From an uncultured virus (IMG/VR IMGVR_UViG_2654587972_000002) (lineage: Duplodnaviria; Heunggongvirae; Uroviricota; Caudoviricetes): DNA of 64,000 bases. Under the pieces are notes generated by a model. It made no database searches, was not told where the DNA came from, and was given only the letters and a program-made list of their open reading frames with translations. The DNA lies in the IMG/VR virus record IMGVR_UViG_2654587972_000002; one strand, given 5' to 3'. Numbering within the stretch: position 1 is the stretch's first letter; every line of letters begins with the position of its first letter. Both the position numbers and the translations under genes were made by a program. Below are positions 2,630 to 38,489 of the stretch, in pieces.

Positions 2630-4489
2630 ATGACAAAAGAATACTTATTAGAAGATTTACAAAGACTCTTTGAAAAAACTAGAACTCAGGCTTTAAGATT
2701 TGCACAAGTTCAAGGCTGGACTGTTGAAAAGAAAAAAATTGGGAAAGTTTATAAGAATGTTTATAAGGCTTCTGAAATTGATGCTTATATATCATCATTA
2801 GTAGAAGTTAAAGAAGAAAAAGAAAAGAAGGTAGCAACTAGAACTGTTGTAAAAAAAGAGGCAACAGCAATTGATGAACTGCCTAGTTGGAATCAACGAA
2901 TTGCAAATGCAAGATTTATCATTTGTATGAAGTTAGAAGAAAAATATGAGGAAGGTGGAGATAGTAAAGAAGAAATAATAAAAAAATTTGTAAATGATGT
3001 AAATAGGAATTATCCACAACAAATGGAGATTTTAAAGAAGTTGACAGTTCCTACACTTCGTAGATGGTGGGGAATATATCTAAAAAATAAGCATAATCCT
3101 TTGGCTTTAGCTTCAGGACATGGAACAACTAAAGGGATCAGAAGAGTAGAAAAAGAAGTTTTAGAGTTTGCTAAGATGCTATATTTTAGCAAAAATAAAC
3201 CAAAGATTTCTTTTGTTTTTGAAAGAGTTGTAGCAATGTTTGGAGTAAAAGCAATTAGTTATGGAACTCTAAGAAATTATCTTAATAAGGATATAAATCT
3301 TATTGAAAAAGATAAGGCAAGAATGGGGAACAAAGAGTTTAAAGACACTTACACACCATTTATCGAGAGAAGCTACGAAGACATTAAAGCTGGAGAAGTT
3401 TGGATGTCAGATGGACATGATTTGGAAATGATGTGTTATCAAGGTGATAAGAAAAAAGCAAATGGTGATAGATACTTTGGATCTCCAAAACTAATCGTTT
3501 GGATAGATGTAAAAAGTAGATTTATAGTTGGTTGGAGTTTAGCATGGAGTGAAACAACTGAAGCTATAGCTATAGCTTTAAAAAGAGGGATTGAAAAGTA
3601 TGGAGTACCTCAGCATTTATACACTGACAACGGGAAGGCATATAAATCTAAAGTTTTGAAAGGAACTGATGAACTAGATGGAATATATGCAAGTTTAGGA
3701 ATAAATGTAGATCATGCAAGAGCATATAATGCTCAAGCAAAGCACATAGAAAGATGGTTCGTTGATTTTAAAGAAAGCTTTACAAAGCAATTTGCAACTT
3801 ATAAAGGTGGAAATATTATAGAAAGACCTGAGCATCTTAGAAGTTTCGCAATGCAAAAATTAGATAAAGGTGAAATTTTAGAACAATGGGAGCTTGAAGA
3901 GTTGATAGAAAAGTTTATAGAAACTAAAAATCATAATTATTATGCTTTAAGAAGAGCAGCAGGACTGAAAGCTCACAGAGGTAGAGGAATGAATAATAGA
4001 ACACCACTGGAAGTGTTCCAGGAAGAAAATCCACTTGCAAATAGAAAAATGCTATCAGATCAAGAACTTAGATTATTGTTCTTATATGAAGAAATAAGAA
4101 CAATAAAACAAAATGGTATTGAATTTATGGGAAATACTTATGTAAATGAATACCTATATTATCACCAAACTGAGAAATGTAAGATTAAGTATGATCCTCA
4201 TGATTTAAGCTATATCTTTGTTTATCAGGAAACAGGGGAATTTTTATGTAAAGCTGAGCAATTAGGACTTGCTGGTTGGAAAGATGTTACTGCTATTAAA
4301 ACACATAAGAAAAGACTTCAAAAAATTAGTAAGTTAAGTAAAGAGATTATGGGAATAAGAGAAGACATAAGAGATAATTTAGATTTAATTGATGCAACAA
4401 TAGTTGAAGACACTAAGGCTATAGAAAACAAGAAAAAAAATGAAAAAGAAAGAATACTTATAGGCGAAGGAATATACTTAGAAGATTAG
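2630..4489 (+). CDS. Mu-type DDE transposase (MuA-like)
   Basis: WMSDGH, YTDNGKAY, AKHIERWF triad; YDPHDLS C-terminal motif. Confidence 0.93.
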   Translation: MTKEYLLEDLQRLFEKTRTQALRFAQVQGWTVEKKKIGKVYKNVYKASEIDAYISSLVEVKEEKEKKVATRTVVKKEATAIDELPSWNQRIANARFIICMKLEEKYEEGGDSKEEIIKKFVNDVNRNYPQQMEILKKLTVPTLRRWWGIYLKNKHNPLALASGHGTTKGIRRVEKEVLEFAKMLYFSKNKPKISFVFERVVAMFGVKAISYGTLRNYLNKDINLIEKDKARMGNKEFKDTYTPFIERSYEDIKAGEVWMSDGHDLEMMCYQGDKKKANGDRYFGSPKLIVWIDVKSRFIVGWSLAWSETTEAIAIALKRGIEKYGVPQHLYTDNGKAYKSKVLKGTDELDGIYASLGINVDHARAYNAQAKHIERWFVDFKESFTKQFATYKGGNIIERPEHLRSFAMQKLDKGEILEQWELEELIEKFIETKNHNYYALRRAAGLKAHRGRGMNNRTPLEVFQEENPLANRKMLSDQELRLLFLYEEIRTIKQNGIEFMGNTYVNEYLYYHQTEKCKIKYDPHDLSYIFVYQETGEFLCKAEQLGLAGWKDVTAIKTHKKRLQKISKLSKEIMGIREDIRDNLDLIDATIVEDTKAIENKKKNEKERILIGEGIYLED

Positions 4490-4497
4490 GAGGAATC

Positions 4498-5445
4498 ATG
4501 GACGATTTAAGAACTAGATTAGAAATATTTTCAGAAGATAATAACATGAGCTTTACAAAAATAGCAAAAGCTATGGGTGTAGGAGCTAGTACATTAAGTG
4601 AGTGGAGAAAAGGAACATACTCAGGAGATAATGAAGCATTTTCTGAAAAAGTAAGTGACTTTTTAGATAGACATAAGAGAAAAATAAAAAGAATAAATTT
4701 TTCAGTAAATACAGAAACTAAAAAGAGAGTTTTTCATGTGTTGAATACTATAAAGAAGTATGTATCTTCTAATATAACTGAAGGGATTATAGAAAGCTCT
4801 AAGATAGGTTATATATATGGAAGGGCAGGATTAGGAAAAACTCATGCTTTACAAGAATGGTTAAAAACTTATGGGGGTAGGGGAGTTTTAATAACAGCAG
4901 AAAATGGGATATCTAGTGTTGGACTTATTAAAAAAATAGCAAAAGAATTAAAACTTGATACAACAGGAAGTTCTGAAACTCTAAAAGACAGGATAAAAGA
5001 TGCTATAAAACTAACAGAAACCATCATCATAATTGATGAAGGTGAACATTTAAAAGCAAATGTAATTGATATTGTAAGAAGCATAGCTGATCAAACAGGA
5101 GTTGGTGTAGTTATTGCAGGAACTGAAGTTTTAAAAAGTAAAATTTTATCAAGAAAAAAAGAATATGAATACTTATATTCAAGAGCTGTTGTAAATATTT
5201 CCTTAAAAGATTTAGCAATAAATGATGTTTCAAATATTGTAAAAGAATTTTTAAAAAATGAAATAGAACTATATAAAGAAACTGAGCTTCAAACATTAAT
5301 CAGCTACATAAATATAGTTGTAAGAGGTTCAGCAAGAAACTTAGCAAATGTTTTAACTTCAAGCTATGAAATAGCTCTACAAAATAACTCATTAAAAATT
5401 GAAAAGAAATATATAGATGCTGCATTATCAACTCTAGCATTATAA
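4498..5445 (+). CDS. MuB-like transposition AAA+ ATPase with N-terminal HTH
   Basis: Walker A GRAGLGKT, Walker B IIIIDEGE; follows transposase. Confidence 0.92.
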   Translation: MDDLRTRLEIFSEDNNMSFTKIAKAMGVGASTLSEWRKGTYSGDNEAFSEKVSDFLDRHKRKIKRINFSVNTETKKRVFHVLNTIKKYVSSNITEGIIESSKIGYIYGRAGLGKTHALQEWLKTYGGRGVLITAENGISSVGLIKKIAKELKLDTTGSSETLKDRIKDAIKLTETIIIIDEGEHLKANVIDIVRSIADQTGVGVVIAGTEVLKSKILSRKKEYEYLYSRAVVNISLKDLAINDVSNIVKEFLKNEIELYKETELQTLISYINIVVRGSARNLANVLTSSYEIALQNNSLKIEKKYIDAALSTLAL

Positions 5446-27720: not shown

Positions 27721-28058
27721 TGGAAGCTATAAAAATGGATGATGGAGATATAAAATTTTCAACTATTTCAGGAATAGATGAGTTCTGGCAGAGAGTAGTA
27801 AATTCTTTAAAAATATATTCAATTGAGTGCTTTTATGATGAAAATTTAGGGCTTGATATAAGAATAATAAATGAACAAGATGTAGCTGAATACAAACTTG
27901 AACATATTTGTAGAAAGTTACAGGAATGGTATAGAGCTGAAATAGAAACAGTCAGTTATCAAATAATTTCTGAAGCAGAAAGAACTTTAAAGGCAAAAAT
28001 ATATATAACACATAAGAAACATAACAATATAGAGAAAGAGGTGATTATCAGTGGATAA
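27720..28058 (+). CDS. baseplate wedge/sheath initiator
   Basis: ECFYDENLGLD; position. Confidence 0.6.
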   Translation: MEAIKMDDGDIKFSTISGIDEFWQRVVNSLKIYSIECFYDENLGLDIRIINEQDVAEYKLEHICRKLQEWYRAEIETVSYQIISEAERTLKAKIYITHKKHNNIEKEVIISG

Positions 28059-29160
28059 ATTTGAAACAAAAGGCTTTCAAGGACTTATGGAATTAGCACA
28101 AAAAGAGGCACAGAAAAAGGAAAACTTTGGGAGTGATTTCAATGTTGAGTCAACTGGTGATTATTACAAACTAGCAGCACCTTTTATATATCTTTGCTCT
28201 TACCTGGAAGACAAAATTATTTCAATAGCAAGGGGTTTAAATATATACAATGCACAAAATGAGGAATTAGACAATTTGTTATATTTTTTTCCTAGAAGAT
28301 TTGGAACAAAAGCTCAAGTACATTGTAAAGTTACAGCAACTAATTTTGTAGATGTGTTACAAGGAGACATTATCATACAAGCTGAAAATGGAGTGAAATA
28401 TGAAAATATAGAAAGATTTGAAGTGGACTCTTCAAGAACTAAAACAATACTATTTCAAAGCTTGTTCGATGGCGAAGATGGGAATATTCAAATCAATAAA
28501 GTTGAAAAGGTTATAAAAGCTCCAGCTTCAATAGTAGATGTACAAAATATAGAGATTGGAGAAGGTGGTCTTTCTTCTGAAACTGACTATGAATATCTAA
28601 AAAGATATTTGGCTGGAAATAGCAAAGGTGAATGGAGTTTATTACCTATTTTAAATGCTATAAGAAAATTACCAGGAGTAAAAAGTGCTAATGGAATAAG
28701 AAACAATACAATGAATATAGACAGCTTTGGACTTTCTCCAAAAAGCATTTGGATAGTAGTAGATGGTGGAATAAAGGAAGAAATAGCACATGCTATTTAT
28801 ATGCACATTCATACTCCAGATACTAAAGGAAATGTTGTCGTAAATGTTCCAACATCTGTGCCTAATCATTTTGAAACTATAAGATTTGATAGACCTGCTC
28901 AAGCAGATATTGAGTATAAATTAGATATAAAAAGTGCTGATGAATTAAAAATAAAAAATTTAATTGATGACTATATTAATGAAGCTGGAATAGGAGCTTT
29001 ACTATCAAATGGGACATTCTTATATGAATATCTTTATAATAAAAACTATAAATATACCGATTTTGACTTGAAGTTTAGAAAAAAAAGTACTCTTATTTGG
29101 AGTAATTCAATTCAATTAAACTTTAATGAAATACCAAAGAGTGCTGGGAGAATATCATGA
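28051..29160 (+). CDS. baseplate J-like protein
   Basis: GGLSSETDYEY, IWIVVDGG motifs. Confidence 0.85.
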   Translation: MDKFETKGFQGLMELAQKEAQKKENFGSDFNVESTGDYYKLAAPFIYLCSYLEDKIISIARGLNIYNAQNEELDNLLYFFPRRFGTKAQVHCKVTATNFVDVLQGDIIIQAENGVKYENIERFEVDSSRTKTILFQSLFDGEDGNIQINKVEKVIKAPASIVDVQNIEIGEGGLSSETDYEYLKRYLAGNSKGEWSLLPILNAIRKLPGVKSANGIRNNTMNIDSFGLSPKSIWIVVDGGIKEEIAHAIYMHIHTPDTKGNVVVNVPTSVPNHFETIRFDRPAQADIEYKLDIKSADELKIKNLIDDYINEAGIGALLSNGTFLYEYLYNKNYKYTDFDLKFRKKSTLIWSNSIQLNFNEIPKSAGRIS

Positions 29161-29783
29161 TAGATGAGGTTATAAAGGGTTTACCTTTACATTTTCAAAA
29201 GGAAAATACAATTAAATTTTATAAGACCTTGAAGCCTGTTATTGAATATATAGATAGCTTAATAGAAAATTTAAAAAATCAAACATCATTATTAAAATGT
29301 TCAGGGATATTCTTAGATTTTATGGGTGAAAGATATGATGAAAAGAGAAGTGGTCGAGATGATGAGACTTATAGACAAGCATTGATTATAAAAAAAATGG
29401 CACTTGATGGATTACCTAATACAGAATTTTTACTTTCACTTACTAGGGAACTTACTAATAAAGAAGTTACTAAATTAAAAACAAGACCATTGCAAGAAGT
29501 AGCTAGTCAACTATTTAAGGTAAATATGATTGATGATTTAAAAGTTATTAATAAAATGCCTGACTTAAATAAAGTTTGTGAAGTTGGAGCAAGGATGTAT
29601 TGGGAGCTTGAAATTATCAATAATAAAAGCAATAAATATTATTCATCAGTAGTTGAGAATATAAAAAAAATAGAAATAAAAGCTGATTTTAAACTAGATC
29701 AAACAATGAGAATAAATTCAAAGTTAAATACTGCTCAAGGGATAGGATTTACTAAAATAATCGAGATAGGGGGAATTAAATAA
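29157..29783 (+). CDS. baseplate wedge protein
   Basis: LDFMGE...RDDETYR motif. Confidence 0.65.
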   Translation: MIDEVIKGLPLHFQKENTIKFYKTLKPVIEYIDSLIENLKNQTSLLKCSGIFLDFMGERYDEKRSGRDDETYRQALIIKKMALDGLPNTEFLLSLTRELTNKEVTKLKTRPLQEVASQLFKVNMIDDLKVINKMPDLNKVCEVGARMYWELEIINNKSNKYYSSVVENIKKIEIKADFKLDQTMRINSKLNTAQGIGFTKIIEIGGIK

Positions 29784-30892
29784 TGAGTTATTTTGAAGGC
29801 TTAAAGCTAACAAAAAAAGGTGAACAACTTCAAGCTAAGATAAATGGAAATTTATCTGAAACTCTAACTTTTACAAAAGCAAAGTTAGGAAGTGGTTCAA
29901 TAACTTCAAATGATGAGATTAGATTCTTAACAGATGTAAAAGAAGTATGGGGGACAGCTAATGTAACTAGTTGTAAGATACAGGGAGATGAAAAAAATAT
30001 AGTAGCTATAGAACTTCAATTTTCTAATGCTGAGCTAAGAGAAGATAAAATCTTCAGAGAAATTGGACTTTATGCACAAGGAAATGAAGGTGAAGAAATT
30101 CTTTATGCTTATGCCAATGCTGGAGATAAATATGATTATATTCCACTAATGAAAGATAGCCCACATTCTTTTATAATAGTAATTTATTTCAATATAACAA
30201 GTGGTTCAAAAGTTGATGCCAAAATTGATTTACATAGCTACATAACACTTCAAGAATTTAACGAGGGAATGAGTAAAAAAGTAAATAAAACAGACTATGC
30301 TTCAGCTGAGCAGTATGGAATTGTTAAGTATGGAACAGAAGAAGGGACAGTACTAGAAGGAAATAAGTTTACTCAGATAATGGGAAAAGATTATGGTGGG
30401 ATATTAAATGAACCAGGAACAAAAGAAGTAGGAAAAACTTACTTTGATAAAAATACAAAGAAATTATACCTGTGTAAGAATACAAATACAGATATTTCAG
30501 CAAATATAAATAATTATATAGCTATGGACAGTCATTCAATTCTTGAGAGATTGGAAAATTTATCTAGTTCTGGTGCAAAAAGGATAGATTTAAATATTCC
30601 TAACTCTAGTCATTCTTATGCTTATAGAATAGGAGACATTTGTATTCTAAATATTGACTCTGGTGGTGCTTTTATTGGGAAAAAAGCAGATGACATATTA
30701 TTTAAGTTACCATCTAATTTATTACCAAAAAGTAGAACGATTGCTACTTTAGGTTCTTTTGTACCAAGCCTAAGTAGAGAAATTGTGGTATATATAGAAC
30801 CAAATGGAAATTGTATTCTAAAATCTCAAAATGTTACATGCCAAACAGCATATTATGGCAATATTAGCTATATAATTCAAAATTTATTTTAA
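29783..30892 (+). CDS. tail fibre protein (constant part + currently attached tip A)
   Basis: LTKKG...FREIGLYA...LYAY N-terminus; crossover repeat encodes RLENLS. Confidence 0.85.
   Translation: MSYFEGLKLTKKGEQLQAKINGNLSETLTFTKAKLGSGSITSNDEIRFLTDVKEVWGTANVTSCKIQGDEKNIVAIELQFSNAELREDKIFREIGLYAQGNEGEEILYAYANAGDKYDYIPLMKDSPHSFIIVIYFNITSGSKVDAKIDLHSYITLQEFNEGMSKKVNKTDYASAEQYGIVKYGTEEGTVLEGNKFTQIMGKDYGGILNEPGTKEVGKTYFDKNTKKLYLCKNTNTDISANINNYIAMDSHSILERLENLSSSGAKRIDLNIPNSSHSYAYRIGDICILNIDSGGAFIGKKADDILFKLPSNLLPKSRTIATLGSFVPSLSREIVVYIEPNGNCILKSQNVTCQTAYYGNISYIIQNLF
30548..30564 (+). repeat. left inversion site AGATTGGAAAATTTATC
   Basis: exact reverse complement of 31185..31201. Confidence 0.92.
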
Positions 30893-31201
30893 AAAAGTTG
30901 TTAACTGTCCCATAAATGTATTTGTAAGAGGATTTCTAACATCTGTAGAAGAAACCATTAAAACATTATTAACTAAAGATAAATGTCCACAAGTTCCATT
31001 ATTTCCTGTGATTGCTGCTGCAGTATTATGACATCTGTAAGGTAAATTACATTTATATGTGATTCCATAATTTACTTTTTCTATACTATATGTGTAAGCA
31101 GCTACAAGAATTAAATTACCGCACTGAAATATAGTAAATTTTATCCCACTTGGAGTTGAATATAATTCTTGAACTTTAAATCTTGATAAATTTTCCAATC
31201 T
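30884..31201 (-). other. silent alternative tail-fibre C-terminal cassette (tip B, 105 aa)
   Basis: open frame starting RLENLS in the repeat, same phase as the fibre gene; TAA at 30884-30886. Confidence 0.88.
31185..31201 (-). repeat. right inversion site
   Basis: GATAAATTTTCCAATCT on + strand. Confidence 0.92.
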
Positions 31202-31251
31202 ATTTACTTTTATATAAAATGTACCTAACAAATTTGAAGGAGGTACAAAGT

Positions 31252-32226
31252 ATGGAACTAAAAGGATGGGAAAAGTTAAAAAAGGAAAATGTGGAGATTT
31301 ATAAGCAGTATTTGAATAGCTGCAAAAGCAGTAACTACGAAACATGGGAAACAACTTATTCTACTTACATCAGTAATTTCAAGTTGTTCCTTATATGGTT
31401 TCAAGAAAATTATAAAAATAGGTATTTATTGAGTAAAGACACACTGATGGAAATGCCTCAAATTATGGAAGAGTACAGAAACCATTGCAGGAGTTTAGGA
31501 AATAGTAAAAGGACTCTAATGAATAAAACAACATCAGTTAGTAGTTTTTATTTATGGTGTGTTAGAAGAAATAAATGCAGGTTTCACCCGTTTGATAAAA
31601 AACTAGACAGATTGAAATTTGCTGAAAAAGATAAGATTAGAAAGAACTATTTTTTAAATACTGAACAAATTCTTACTGTTAGACTTTTTATGAAATTTCA
31701 AAATAAAAAGTATGATATTCAAGATAGGATTTTATGGGAATTATTTTTAGACAGTGCTTGTAGAATTTCAGCGGTTCAAAATTTAAAGTTGGAGCAATTA
31801 AGACTAGAAGAGGGATACTTTGAAGGAGTTAAAGAAAAAGAAGGTTATATAGTGAATGCCTTTTTCTTTGAGAAATGTAAAATTCTTTTAAAAGAATGGA
31901 TTAAATTCAGAGAAGAGTCAGGAATACATAGTGAATGGCTGTTTATAACAAAATATGGAGATGAATATAGAAAGATGAGTCAGGGGACTATAAGAAACAG
32001 AGTAAAAAAAATGGGCTTAATTCTAGATATTCCAGACTTATACCCGCACTCTTTAAGAAAAACATCAATAAATCTTATAAACAATCTAGCGGGGTTAGGT
32101 GTTGCTAGTAGCTATGCAAATCATACAAGTAGCAATGTAACAAGTAAACACTATTTGCAAAAAGCTAACCCTATGGAAGTAAGAAATAATATTATTCAGC
32201 TTCGTAAAAAGCTAGGAATATTTTAG
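31252..32226 (+). CDS. tyrosine recombinase, probable tail-fibre invertase
   Basis: SACRISA, PHSLRKT, ANH...KHY catalytic motifs; GGAGG RBS; 50 bp from right repeat. Confidence 0.88.
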   Translation: MELKGWEKLKKENVEIYKQYLNSCKSSNYETWETTYSTYISNFKLFLIWFQENYKNRYLLSKDTLMEMPQIMEEYRNHCRSLGNSKRTLMNKTTSVSSFYLWCVRRNKCRFHPFDKKLDRLKFAEKDKIRKNYFLNTEQILTVRLFMKFQNKKYDIQDRILWELFLDSACRISAVQNLKLEQLRLEEGYFEGVKEKEGYIVNAFFFEKCKILLKEWIKFREESGIHSEWLFITKYGDEYRKMSQGTIRNRVKKMGLILDIPDLYPHSLRKTSINLINNLAGLGVASSYANHTSSNVTSKHYLQKANPMEVRNNIIQLRKKLGIF

Positions 32227-32239
32227 AAAGGAGCAATAA

Positions 32240-33028
32240 ATGAGCAATGTAATAAACTTTTATAAAGGCATAGAATTAAAATATTCAGTATATTCCAACA
32301 GTTTAGAAGATGTTAAAAATAATCCACTTAATTATTTTCAGGAATATACTGATGATATGTTCATAACAGATAAGAATTTTCAATATCCAATAATCAAAAA
32401 TAATGAACTAATGGAAATGACAAGAGAAGAAAGAATAGAACAAGGGATAGAAACTCAACTAGAACCTGGTGAATTTATAAAAAATAAAAAACTTGTCAAA
32501 GCCCCTCAGCCGAGTAAATACCATTTTTGGAATAAAGAGACTAATAAATGGGATTTAGACCTGGAAGGTTTAAAGCATATTACAAGAAGAAAATTTAGAC
32601 AAGTTTTACTGGATAAAATTTATGCTGATTTTGATTATAACGGGAAAATTTTTCAAATGGGAGAAGCTGATGAAAAAAACTTTTTAAGAGTAAAATCAGC
32701 GATAGACATAGCTACAACAAGTAATGATCCAAAAGCAATAATTGATGCTGTTAAGTTCTTAAAAGGTGATGTCCCAGAAGGTTTTGAAGAGAAAATAAAA
32801 GCAATTATAAAAGATAAGACAACATTATCAGAAGTAATTCAAAATTTAAAAATAAATTGGAGATTGAAGGACAATTCTGTTGATTCCTTTACTTTTGGAG
32901 AGATTAATCATATCTATCTTTTATGGATACTACGTGGGACAGCTGCACAAGAGGAATATACGGCAGTGGCAACCAAAACAATGGAAGCTAAATCTTTAAA
33001 AGAATTGGAATCTATCGAATGGAAATAA
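32240..33028 (+). CDS. tail fibre assembly-type protein
   Basis: PQPSKYHFWN, WRLKDNS, LESIEW motifs; position. Confidence 0.65.
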   Translation: MSNVINFYKGIELKYSVYSNSLEDVKNNPLNYFQEYTDDMFITDKNFQYPIIKNNELMEMTREERIEQGIETQLEPGEFIKNKKLVKAPQPSKYHFWNKETNKWDLDLEGLKHITRRKFRQVLLDKIYADFDYNGKIFQMGEADEKNFLRVKSAIDIATTSNDPKAIIDAVKFLKGDVPEGFEEKIKAIIKDKTTLSEVIQNLKINWRLKDNSVDSFTFGEINHIYLLWILRGTAAQEEYTAVATKTMEAKSLKELESIEWK

Positions 33029-34899: not shown

Positions 34900-34977
34900 T
34901 TTATTTTTATCATTTTGTTTTTAAATAAAATTATCATTTTAAATTGAAATTTTTATCAAATCGTTTTGCGTCTTACA
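34900..34977. repeat. Mu-like right end with three transposase-site-like repeats and terminal CA
   Basis: TTATCA at 34907, 34931, 34953; CA at 34976-34977. Confidence 0.7.
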
Positions 34978-35988
34978 TATGTAAAAGAAAATGCAGATAA
35001 AATAGGGCAAAAACCTATGGGAACAGGACCATATAAATTTGTTTCATGGGAAAGTGGAGATAGAGTTGTTTTAGAAGCTTTTCCTGATTATTGGAGAGGA
35101 GAAGCTCCTATAAAAAATGTAATATTTAGAAATGTAGTTGAAGAAACAAATAGAACTATAGGTCTTGAAACTGGTGAAATCGACATAATATATGATGTTG
35201 GTTCTATGGATAAAAATAAGATAAAAGAAGATGGTAGATTTAAGCTTATAGAAGCTCCACAAGCAAGAGTAGAATACTTAGGTTTTAATGTTAAGAAAAA
35301 ACCTTATGATAATCCAAAAGTAAGAGAAGCTATTTCTTATGCATTAGATCAAAAACCTATAATAGATACTGTATATCTTGGAGCAGCAGAACCAGCAACA
35401 TCTATAATAGGACCAAAAATATTATATAGTATTGAAGTTGAAAAATTTACTCAAGATATAGAAAAAGCAAAAGAATTATTAAAAGAAGCGGGTTTTCCAA
35501 ATGGATTTAAAACAAAACTTTGGACTAGTGATAACCCAGCAAGAAGAGATATGGCAGTTATTATTCAAGATCAATTAAAACAAATAGGAATAGATGTTAC
35601 TATTGAAACTCTTGAATGGGGAGCTTACTTAGATGGTACAGGTAGAGGAGAACAAGAGATGTATTTACTAGGTTGGACTACAGTAACAAGAGATCCTGAC
35701 TATGGTATTGCAGAATTAACTAGTACTGAAACACAGGGAAATGCTGGAAATAGAAGTTTTTATTCAAATCCTGAACTTGATAAGCTACTAAAAGCTGGTA
35801 AAGTTGAAATGGATCCTGAAAAGAGAAAAGAAATTTATAAAAAAGCACAAGAAATTATTAGACATGATATACCAATGTATATGATACTTTATCCAACTCA
35901 AGCTGTTGCAACACAAAAAAATATAAAAGGATTTAAATTAGGAACTATGAATTCATATGAAATTTATGAAGTTTCTATTGAAAAGTAA
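34978..35988 (+). pseudogene. 3' portion of host peptide ABC transporter substrate-binding protein (DppA/OppA family) interrupted by prophage 1
   Basis: begins mid-protein just before PMGTGPYKF; no RBS or signal peptide. Confidence 0.85.
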
Positions 35989-37024: not shown

Positions 37025-37072
37025 AGTATAACACAGTAACAAAAAAAAGCAACTTATATAGAGTTGCTTTTT
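37025..37072 (-). promoter_or_regulatory. terminator after integrase plus extended -10 promoter for phage cobB
   Basis: AAAAAGCAACT/AGTTGCTTTTT hairpin; TGtTATACT on minus strand. Confidence 0.6.
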
Positions 37073-38489
37073 AATAGAATAAAATTGAAATTTTCAATGG
37101 ATAAAAGGATATTACTCTAATTTCTTTTATCAACATTTTTAAAATTTTTCTTGTTTCTATAACATCTTCTTCATCATAGTTTTCAATAATAAATTTTAAC
37201 TTTTCTAAAAGTTTTATATCATTATTTTTTGGAATATTTAAATTCTTTTCAAATTCAAGTTTTTTTTCTTTTGCAATTTTAATTCTAGCATTAAGATCTT
37301 TAAATCTATTTTCAAGTTCATCTTCGCTGATATAACTCTTTTGAAATAGATTTATTATTCTTTCTCTCTCATTTTCTAATACTTTTAAATTATTTTCAAG
37401 TTTTAATAATTTTTTTTCATTTTTCTCAATATCATTAGAATTATAATTATTCAAATCTTCTAATTCTTTTGAATTTAGAATCATTTCTTTAATAGTTTTA
37501 TCCATAATTTTAGCAGAGAAGGATTTTTTATGTTTTCTATTTTTACATGAATAAGAGTAATAAGCGTATTTAGTATTGTCTTTATAACTCCTATTCCTCT
37601 TTTGCTGATACATCTTATCTCCACATTCACAATAAATCATAGATGAAAACAGTAAATAAGGTTTATAATCCCCATAAAAAGCTCTTGATTTTATATTTTT
37701 TTCTCTAATAGACTGACAAAATTCAAATAATTCAAGAGGAACAATTGGTTCATGAAGTCCTTTATACCACTTTATGTCTTTTTTACTTACTTGAGTTCTA
37801 TTTTTTTGATTTAATTCTTTTACATATTTTCTTAAAGGAACATAACCAATATAAATTTTATTATCAATAATATCAACTATATCCATTCTTGTTTTATTAA
37901 ATATTCTAGCAGTTTCAGTTAGATTAAAATTTTTAGCATATGTTTCAAAAATACTAAGTATATAAGGAGCCTTTTCAGGATCAGGAACAATCATTTTATT
38001 TTCTCCTCTAATGTATCCTGTTGCTGGTCTACCATGAACAAAATATCCTGCTTTTGTTTTTTCTTCCAAATTACTTTTTATTCTTAAAGACATCTGCTTT
38101 AAATCTTCAGTACCCCAAGCTAAGAATATAGAAAGTGTCATAAAATCTTTTAAATATGGTTGTGAGATACTATCAAAAGTAATTTTATATAATTCTAATT
38201 CTTCAAAAAACTTCATTCCTGTTGAAATTTTTCTTGCTATTCTTGAAATTTCCCAGAAAACTATTTTAGTATATATTTTCTTACTAATAGCTCCAAAAAG
38301 TTCGTTAAACTCTTTTCTGTCATCTATTCTTCCACTTTCAATATCTTGGTAAACTTTTAAGACTTCATAACCTTTTTCTTTGCAGTAGTCTAAACATTTT
38401 TTTAATTGAAGATTAAGGGAGCTATCACTCCCTTTGTCTCTAGTTTGTTCTTTTTTTGATACTCTAATATAAATGGCAACTTTTTCCAT
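37071..38489 (-). CDS. large serine recombinase (integrase)
   Basis: YIRVS catalytic motif, SRIAR, HEPIV, CECG zinc ribbon, coiled coil. Confidence 0.93.
   Translation of the reverse strand: MEKVAIYIRVSKKEQTRDKGSDSSLNLQLKKCLDYCKEKGYEVLKVYQDIESGRIDDRKEFNELFGAISKKIYTKIVFWEISRIARKISTGMKFFEELELYKITFDSISQPYLKDFMTLSIFLAWGTEDLKQMSLRIKSNLEEKTKAGYFVHGRPATGYIRGENKMIVPDPEKAPYILSIFETYAKNFNLTETARIFNKTRMDIVDIIDNKIYIGYVPLRKYVKELNQKNRTQVSKKDIKWYKGLHEPIVPLELFEFCQSIREKNIKSRAFYGDYKPYLLFSSMIYCECGDKMYQQKRNRSYKDNTKYAYYSYSCKNRKHKKSFSAKIMDKTIKEMILNSKELEDLNNYNSNDIEKNEKKLLKLENNLKVLENERERIINLFQKSYISEDELENRFKDLNARIKIAKEKKLEFEKNLNIPKNNDIKLLEKLKFIIENYDEEDVIETRKILKMLIKEIRVISFYPLKISILFY

Follow-up and report, generated by a model that had tools for sequence, protein, structure and literature searches.

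The tail-fibre gene of a Mu-like phage and the gene for a tyrosine recombinase are separated by a short silent reading frame, and the silent frame and the end of the fibre gene are together enclosed by inverted repeats. This raises the question of whether the locus is a switch that exchanges the tip of the fibre by inversion of a DNA segment. The locus is part of a stretch of 64,000 nucleotides from an uncultured virus (IMG/VR record IMGVR_UViG_2654587972_000002), which is called the window throughout, and it occupies positions 29783 to 33028. An initial annotation made from the letters alone had proposed an invertible tail-fibre tip switch that is driven by the tyrosine recombinase. Judged from the sequence of the window and its relatives, it is very probable that the element is a working two-tip switch of the Rin/shufflon kind.

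The tail-fibre open reading frame (ORF; 29783-30892, plus strand) encodes 369 amino acids, and the hexapeptide RLENLS occupies residues 256-261 and is coded from position 30548 onwards. Exactly there starts the left arm of an inverted repeat. A repeat finder revealed arms of 20 nt at 30548-30567 and 31182-31201, which are 95% complementary (19/20) and 614 nt apart. Their perfect part of 17 nt, AGATTGGAAAATTTATC, had two matches in the whole window when up to two mismatches were allowed, while the expectation from shuffled sequences was 0.12 matches and two matches were reached in 3 of 100 shuffles. Therewith the perfect 17-bp repeats of the initial annotation, their extension to 19/20 and the 654 bp enclosed by them were confirmed. 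The span 30548-31201 contains nothing but two tips. Tip A (30548..30892, plus strand, including the stop codon) is the C-terminal tip of 114 amino acids that is currently fused to the fibre. Tip B (30884..31201, minus strand) is a silent alternative of 105 amino acids without a fibre N-terminus of its own. The minus-strand frame is open from above 31201 down to the stop codon at 30884-30886, and from 31201 it reads RLENLS followed by 99 residues. A BLASTP comparison of the two tips yielded no similarity past the six residues RLENLS. The in-frame hexapeptide at both copies and the dissimilarity of the attached and the silent tip, as first described, thus agree with the ORF list and with BLASTP. 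The overlap of the two tips by 9 bp (30884-30892) was also correctly given, but the frames converge tail-to-tail and not head-to-head as had been stated. The constant part of the fibre (residues 1-255, 29783..30547) would be retained in either orientation of the segment. Tip B is predicted to form a beta-sandwich that resembles the heads of phage receptor-binding proteins.

Each arm contains a putative recombination site. At the left site (30548..30567, plus strand), which is situated within the fibre gene, the core TGGAAAAT is found at 30552-30559 and is read (L)-E-N. At the right site (31182..31201, minus strand) the plus strand reads ATTTTCCA at 31190-31197, which is 62 bp ahead of the start codon of the recombinase gene. 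The recombinase gene (31252..32226, plus strand) starts 50 bp past the right arm and encodes an Xer-like protein of 324 amino acids, the proposed invertase. Residues 145-305 match the Pfam family PF00589 (Phage_integrase) with an E-value of 4.5e-18 and 66.1 bits, compared to a cut-off of 27.1, and the match to the PHROG integrase family has an E-value of 3e-26. The best NCBIfam matches were XerA, XerC, XerS and XerD models (residues 20-282; 7e-18 to 3e-10 for XerA, XerC and XerD), all far under their cut-offs, and an Rci model was absent among the NCBIfam matches listed. The only solved structure that was matched by sequence is a XerC-like protein (5e-4). In an alignment with the recombinases of the Fusobacterium phages Funu1 (74% identical) and phiRTG5 (59% identical), which covers three clades, the residues R171, H266, R269, H291 and Y301 were invariant; we take them to be the catalytic motif R..H-x-x-R..H..Y of tyrosine recombinases. 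An extra arm-binding domain is lacking. It was thus verified that a tyrosine recombinase with intact motifs lies 50 bp from the repeat. The claim that it is an enzyme of the shufflon type holds for the mode of action, but not for the family, because the Xer models fitted best and no Rci model was listed.

The leader of the recombinase gene (31202..31251, plus strand) contains the motif TATAAA 15 nt past the core and a GGAGG ribosome-binding site. By eye, TATAAT or TATAAA was also found about 15 nt past the core in the printed leaders of relatives, and a promoter-like match at 31192-31220 scored 9/12. The number of promoter-like sites around the switch (21) did not exceed that in shuffled sequences (20.7), and only 13 of 86 leaders had a -10 box 16-18 nt after TTTCCA. 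From its sequence, the leader may act as a promoter.

A phage of the Mu type does not need the recombinase for integration. A Mu-type transposase gene (2630-4489, plus strand) matches phrog_310 (8.9e-99) and the Pfam families Mu-transpos_C (4e-18), DDE_2 (1.7e-8) and rve (1.4e-12), and it is followed by a gene for a MuB-like ATPase (4498-5445, plus strand; phrog_296, DNA transposition protein, 1.2e-51). The assignment to the Mu-like phages is thereby substantiated. Because the genes for Mu-type transposition are present, an integrase is unneeded, and the tyrosine recombinase is therefore free for another role.

The arrangement suggests the following course of events. The Xer-like recombinase would pair the two inverted sites and would exchange strands within TGGAAAAT, so that the segment of 654 bp would flip. 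By this flip the last 114 amino acids of the fibre, tip A, would be replaced by the 105 amino acids of tip B, and tip A would become the silent copy. Since both tips start in the same codon phase (L-E-N), the flip would exchange them in frame. A population of lysogens would then release particles with either tip, probably of different receptor specificity. That the neighbouring recombinase is the flipping enzyme, that the window copy flips at present and that the tips change the host range would all be in keeping with the layout of the locus.

For a comparative analysis, related loci were collected. A DNA search of deposited phages matched only Funu1 and phiRTG5. Both share the order of fibre gene, small start-less frames, a gene labelled 'integrase', a DUF4376-like gene and endolysin gene; in the deposited records this 'integrase' is the recombinase, and most of the silent tips are labelled 'hypothetical protein'. 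A scan of genome contigs with the recombinase protein alone gave 71 pattern matches, none of which was confirmed. With an alignment of three recombinases as query, 2 genome loci, 27 viral-contig loci and 80 metagenome-contig loci were obtained. The analyses of cores and cassettes are based on 92 non-identical loci, one of them the window, whose recombinases share at least 70% identity with that of the window; the duplicates L008 (identical to L003) and L066 (identical to L010) had been removed.

The borders of homology between the window and its relatives coincide with the arms. In 18 of the 23 close relatives compared, the match to the fibre gene stops at 30559-30566, and in 21 of 23 the match that covers the recombinase gene starts at 31157-31190. 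In the remaining loci L048 and L029 it starts already at 30871-30873, because the cassette of tip B is common to both of them and the window. Contigs of four public sequencing runs depart from the window at 30559 or 30563 and rejoin it at 31190, with 576 or 654 other letters in between. These breakpoints indicate that the arms are the boundaries of a cassette slot.

The 8-mer TGGAAAAT, read x-TG GAA AAT and thus (L/V/M)-E-N, was found without variation at every cassette start. An inverted core is positioned 55-62 bp ahead of the recombinase start codon in 86 loci, including the window, and the fibre gene contains a forward copy. Where arrays are larger, neighbouring segments meet at a 19-bp palindrome, ATTTTCCAC(A/T)GTGGAAAAT, which is formed by two cores 11 bp apart. 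The background frequency of TGGAAAAT was 0.29 per kb in the sequence downstream of the recombinase start, so that some isolated matches of the 8-mer are due to chance, and only structured matches were counted. The 41 complete arrays comprise 2 (22 arrays), 4 (9 arrays), 5 (3 arrays), 6 (4 arrays), 8 (2 arrays) or 10 cassettes (1 array). Only two cassettes are present in 21 of the 23 listed members of the window's clade, which is defined by a recombinase at least 90% identical. The designation as a minimal system is therefore adequate for this clade only, and not for relatives with up to 10 cassettes. At the cassette starts of all loci, the left-hand context decides whether the codon with the first two core bases reads TTG, GTG or ATG; therefore every silent cassette opens with a possible start codon.

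The cassettes are open to an extent that is not expected for random sequence. Of 339 core sites with the stop codon in view, 271 lead into 80-129 open codons in the L-E-N frame, while only 9.6% of 1641 random starts reached 80 open codons. The 261 cassettes of at least 70 amino acids were grouped into 57 tip families by single linkage at 60% identity and 70% coverage. Nearly half of the families (26 of 57) have silent members as well as members joined to a long fibre frame upstream, and in the window's clade 8 of 28 families were both fused and silent-inverted. Tip B is one of the 12 members of family 4. Tips of this family are fused to the fibre in L042 and L056; those of the window, L003, L010, L029, L048 and L054 are silent and inverted, and those of L064, L068, L070 and L076 are located on the strand of the fibre gene. 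Tip A belongs to family 42, and its single relative is the terminal silent inverted cassette of L095, which lies by the recombinase gene and is 92.5% identical over 321 nt. The survey of RLENL cassettes in related prophages, which had been recommended together with the initial annotation, thus yielded core-marked cassettes across all 92 loci.

The ratio of nonsynonymous to synonymous substitution rates (dN/dS) was determined for family 4. The median was 0.27 over 55 pairs and 0.29 over the 28 pairs in which both members are silent, and the copy of the window had values of 0.21-0.47 in comparison with ten relatives. The low ratios, including those of the silent-silent pairs, show that silent cassettes are kept as coding sequences by purifying selection.

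Inversions were also evident from comparisons between loci. In 30 pairs of loci an inverted block was found beside at least one collinear block with at least 90% identity (this count includes the duplicates L008 and L066). In L042 family 4 is fused and family 18 is terminal, and in L048 the positions are swapped; the whole segment of 632 bp aligns as reverse complement with 76% identity over 638 columns, and the collinear flanks are 82% and 95% identical. The same type of flip was found for family 21 in L037 and L040 with an identity of 94%. Hence, the proposal of inversion was supported by the occurrence of the same tips in fused and silent form in both orientations across the 92 loci, and by the flip of the whole segment between L042 and L048. 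Furthermore, one and the same cassette occurs after differing left-hand sequences (fibre, internal or terminal). The sequence changes directly ahead of the 8-mer and is cassette-specific directly after it. The overlap region of tyrosine recombinases comprises 6-8 bp, and this would fit strands being exchanged inside the 8-bp core or at its edges.

An isolate assembly, G001, which was found via locus L004, contains a recombinase that is 59% identical to that of the window and a different core, ATTGAATAATCT, which is read L-N-N-L. This core occurs 12 times in the assembly, and 10 of the occurrences are in contigs of the shufflon: five are central in junction contigs of 239-242 bp, three are in one contig of 1021 bp, and two are at the ends of the contigs that bear the constant part of the fibre and the recombinase gene. 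Three left-hand contexts and three cassettes are combined to seven junction types, while a fixed order would yield three, and all three cassettes were found fused to the fibre. Either arrangements are mixed in the culture, or several genome copies differ only in their arrangement; both possibilities require recent recombination at the core. In addition, 17 of the 46 contigs that end upstream of the recombinase gene end within 47 nt of the core, and 8 of these exactly 47 nt away from it. Contig ends near the core are a mark of a branch of the assembly graph at this site.

Several observations weigh against a switch that is active in the window today. The contigs of the four public runs mentioned above carry other letters (576 or 654) in the segment and not its flipped form, and the material of all 23 public runs consisted of assembled contigs, the best of which shared a fraction of 0.44 of the window's sampled words. 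G001 represents a distant clade with another core, and several prophage copies of fixed order could give the same junctions. The breaks of contigs at cores could stem from mixed strains with different cassettes. Within the segment, flipped pairs from the window's clade share no more than 76-94% identity, so that they reveal inversion over evolutionary time, but not its rate.

These points bear on the possibility that the element is a locked or fossil switch, which descended from an active shufflon, but in which the two-cassette copy flips negligibly and tips are exchanged only rarely in the course of evolution. The lack of orientation heterogeneity of the window copy in the assembled contigs of the public runs is in line with this, and so are the divergence of 6-24% inside the segment for relatives with the flipped arrangement, and the fact that the window's clade has the smallest arrays, with two cassettes in 21 of the 23 listed members. 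However, the arms have 17 nt without a mismatch, the intact recombinase shows 91-100% conservation within the clade, both tips are open, and the purifying selection on silent tips would be hard to explain if they were never expressed. A locked switch is therefore unlikely.

Considerably less probable is an explanation without any inversion. The recombinase might serve the resolution of dimers or integration, and the repeat might be the trace of a hinge with the sequence L-E-N-L, at which tips were swapped by homologous recombination. The core indeed codes for a conserved peptide motif, the homology between relatives breaks right at the core, as it would at a point of modular exchange, and among protein families the enzyme is matched best by Xer models. 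Yet a hinge explains neither the silent cassettes without a fibre N-terminus that are kept open on the opposite strand, nor the inverted core at its fixed place 55-62 bp ahead of the recombinase gene, the 19-bp palindromic junctions and the seven junction types in one isolate assembly; an identity of 8 bp is far too short for homologous recombination, and the phage transposes via Mu-type genes. That an enzyme acting in trans flips the segment, e.g., the large serine recombinase of a neighbouring prophage (37071-38489), the gene of which is 6 kb away and the N-terminal part of which matches a DNA invertase family at 7.4e-23, is most improbable, because this enzyme belongs to the other prophage and matches best to an integrase family (2e-72), and because a tyrosine and not a serine recombinase accompanies the array in every related locus, including Funu1 and phiRTG5.

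Inversion by the neighbouring recombinase remains the preferred explanation. Among 131 species genomes of the bacterial family, 32 encode homologues of the recombinase with an E-value of at most 1e-40. Recombinases that are 43-48% identical (among loci L128-L156, genomes G008-G117) have upstream inverted repeats with other cores, e.g., AATTACAGAAT and ATTAGAGAATT; several of the recombinase genes of this group are at contig starts. One relative with a recombinase 75% identical has the core ATTAGAAAATT. Across the clades the peptide L-(E/Q/N)-N is retained despite variation in the DNA of the core (TGGAAAAT, TAGAAAAT, TTAGAGAAT, TTACAGAAT, TTGAATAAT), and this suggests that enzyme and site may co-evolve under a constraint on the protein. 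Distant homologues are encoded in Lysinibacillus phage LC76P1 and Brevibacillus phage Sundance, where the neighbouring genes are unannotated or structural genes.

Three prophages of the window's family (L056, L070 and L079) reside on one contig of 1.5 Mb, and a fourth (L090) on a separate contig that shares the accession prefix; the core TGGAAAAT is present in each of the four. Recombination among these copies could invert or delete segments of the chromosome.

Some relatives contain a second, non-coding inverton of 121-159 bp between the stop codon of the recombinase gene and the DUF4376 and lysis genes (e.g., L001:5057-5222 and L002:4590-4776). The window lacks this inverton; there, the next gene follows the recombinase stop codon after only 13 bp (32227-32239). 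In 44 of 47 loci of the Funu1 type, the core AGATTTT(C/T)AAATTTAT and its complement flank about 121 bp, and the two orientations were counted as 14:21 and 5:3 in two allele groups by direct reading and by k-mers. In the F. necrophorum clade the cores TTTCTAATCT/AGATTAGAAA flank 159 bp, with five loci in one orientation and two in the opposite one. Both orientations were present within the isolate assembly G001 (contig C92 versus the junction contigs C5 and C6). A BLAST screen for collinear flanks with an inverted middle was negative for all 3170 pairs, with thresholds too strict for a segment of 121 bp. Promoter-like sites around the second inverton were not in excess over shuffled sequences. 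The cores of inverton and shufflon share their outer bases and differ in the central three (AGATT-GGA-AAATTT versus AGATT-TT(C/T)-AAATTT, and AGATT-GAA-TAATCT versus AGATT-TTC-TAATCT), which would prevent recombination between the two switches. It is tempting to speculate that the switch of the window is a trimmed form of a system common to the Fusobacteriaceae, in which one Xer-like recombinase runs two insulated switches, but this is rather doubtful. If the same enzyme flipped both, the choice of the tip and, perhaps, whether or when the downstream chaperone and lysis genes are read would vary independently.

The gene downstream of the recombinase gene (32240..33028, plus strand), outside of the invertible segment, had been taken for the gene of the fibre chaperone. 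The position is correct, and the identity as a chaperone is plausible. By sequence, the protein of 262 amino acids had no significant family in Pfam or NCBIfam, and Pfam DUF4376 was not reached; of 21 aligned family members, 5 matched DUF4376 (best E-value 1.2e-10). The structural model of the protein had a predicted local distance difference test (pLDDT) score of 92.7. In a library of viral structures it had 23 matches with E-values of at most 0.001, the best of which was a DUF4376 protein (1.7e-12, template modelling (TM) scores 0.64/0.75), and the comparison with the PDB gave no informative match. According to the parts consulted of the respective reports, DUF4376 is the conserved C-terminus of the fibre-assembly protein of Mu (PMC7882524), the only BLASTp relatives of the fibre chaperone gp27 of Alteromonas phage V22 bear a C-terminal DUF4376 (PMC7289586), and the fibre tip is bound by the N-terminal part of Tfa proteins (PMC7882524). 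Based on its modelled fold, the product of 32240-33028 is thus plausibly a fibre chaperone of the Tfa type. Its first about 45 residues (32240-32377) exist in two unrelated forms in relatives, and the middle part in several forms. In place of 136 bp at the gene start, three public runs carry 141 other letters. One such protein would have to serve up to ten dissimilar tips.

The fibre gene itself belongs to a cluster of tail genes. The N-terminal part of the protein matches the PHROG tail fiber families phrog_7037 (8.9e-33) and phrog_19961 (1.3e-32), so that its initial assignment as a fibre was upheld, and residues 1-363 match phrog_23632 (function unknown) at 2.3e-33; the match to Pfam Phage_tail_fib (0.0016) was under the cut-off. 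Directly ahead of the fibre gene lie a baseplate J-like gene (28051-29160; Pfam Baseplate_J, 1.3e-8) and the gene of a baseplate protein (29157-29783), both on the plus strand. These baseplate genes match phrog_6 (baseplate wedge, 1.3e-25) and phrog_4056 (baseplate protein, 2.8e-8), and the Funu1 gene at the corresponding baseplate position is annotated as 'tail protein I'.

In the early Mu-like region a protein of 261 amino acids (1245-2030) contains only an N-terminal SAM-like integrase domain (Pfam Phage_int_SAM_4, 7e-13), and Pfam and PHROG scans found no match to a catalytic domain. The first frame after the Mu-like prophage (34966-35988) has a TTG start and matches only positions 196-520 of the 530 positions of phrog_18374 (function unknown; 2e-67). 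It looks like a gene that has been truncated at its 5' end, perhaps by the insertion of the transposable phage. The unrelated second prophage (37071-64000) starts 2 kb after the Mu-like one. It encodes the large serine recombinase (minus strand), ParA-like and replication proteins and, up to the end of the window, terminase, portal, protease, major head, tail sheath and head-closure proteins.

Phage-based control is being investigated for Fusobacterium nucleatum and F. necrophorum, of whose phages few have been characterised. A common group of Mu-like prophages of Fusobacterium bears built-in tip switching; 57 tip families were counted, and a single phage has as many as 10 tips. Host range would here be a property of a mixed population and not of a single genome sequence, and assemblies will often break or mislead at the tip-switch locus. 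The catalogue of tips is a ready natural set of receptor-binding domains for further study. The surrounding family is unusually rich, and the second, non-coding inverton of some members is its most novel lead.

How does the switch compare to known systems? In the shufflon of the R64/IncI plasmids, the tyrosine recombinase Rci is encoded at the far end of the array and the target is pilV, the gene of an adhesin of the conjugative pilus. Four segments each carry two convergent C-terminal cassettes, and only a short core and one flank are conserved per site. The position of the recombinase gene at the far end, the convergent cassettes and the fusion of one constant gene to the cassette that faces it are shared with the window. 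The window differs in its target, which is a tail fibre in a cluster of baseplate genes and not pilV, in having one segment instead of four, and in its enzyme, which gave only Xer-type matches, all below the cut-offs, with no Rci model listed.

Fibre switches of temperate phages are classically flipped by serine invertases, i.e., Gin at the G segment of Mu, Cin at the C segment of P1 and Min of p15B, and their segments are kilobase-sized and include the matching chaperone gene. Their role is that proposed for the Mu-like phage of the window: a temperate phage exchanges, by inversion, the C-terminal part of its tail fibre. In contrast, the enzyme of the window is a tyrosine recombinase, the segment has only 654 bp, and the candidate chaperone gene lies outside.

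The Gin, Cin and Min switches are also covered in the consulted part of the report on the closest counterpart, the Rin shufflon of prophages of Bifidobacterium breve and B. longum (PMC6109161, Mavrich et al. 2018). As described there, Rin comprises a constant gene of a receptor-binding protein, variable C-terminal genes for 95-100 amino acids, sites of 11 bp and a XerD-like tyrosine invertase; a shufflon of the same kind is reported for prophages of Eggerthella lenta (PMC8778435, consulted in part). The abstract of the Rin report already contains a tyrosine-family invertase of phages that swaps receptor-binding tips, and the novelty of the window switch had thus been overrated in the initial annotation. 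As far as the published description goes, in both systems a constant N-terminal receptor-binding gene precedes C-terminal cassettes that are dissimilar, lack a start codon and code for about 100 amino acids; a short core (11 bp and 8 bp for Rin, 8 bp for the window) stands where each cassette begins, and the neighbouring Xer-like tyrosine recombinase has no arm-binding domain and is separate from the enzyme for integration of the phage. The type of evidence, inversions between related prophages, is also the same. The likeness is one of layout and of the published description. The host of Rin prophages belongs to the Actinobacteria and that of the window to the Fusobacteriota, the core sequences differ, and Rin is found in siphoviruses with an integrase, whereas the window contains a Mu-like transposable myovirus with a baseplate fibre. 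A further difference is that convergent pairs of cassettes are joined by 19-bp palindromes in the family of the window.

An active tail-fibre shufflon, all configurations of which were present in reads, is described for BV01-like phages of Phocaeicola (preprint PMC13596623). According to the text available, its multi-cassette array likewise overlaps the tail-fibre gene's distal end, is flanked by a recombinase gene and has directional motifs of 10 bp that separate the cassettes; the host phylum and the motif TGGGAGAACT are different. In this text the words 'tyrosine' and 'invertase' are absent, and the class of the recombinase is not evident from it. A survey of programmed inversions (PMC9881135) found tail fibre genes enriched among their targets; it also mentions the R64/IncI shufflon, and the string 'Fusobacter' is absent from its text. 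No Fusobacterium shufflon was found in the literature searched, and the original description of phage Funu1, which was outside the coverage, may mention the region. Taken together, the switch of the window embodies no new principle; most probably it is of the Rin/shufflon kind, which it extends to a further host phylum and a further type of phage.

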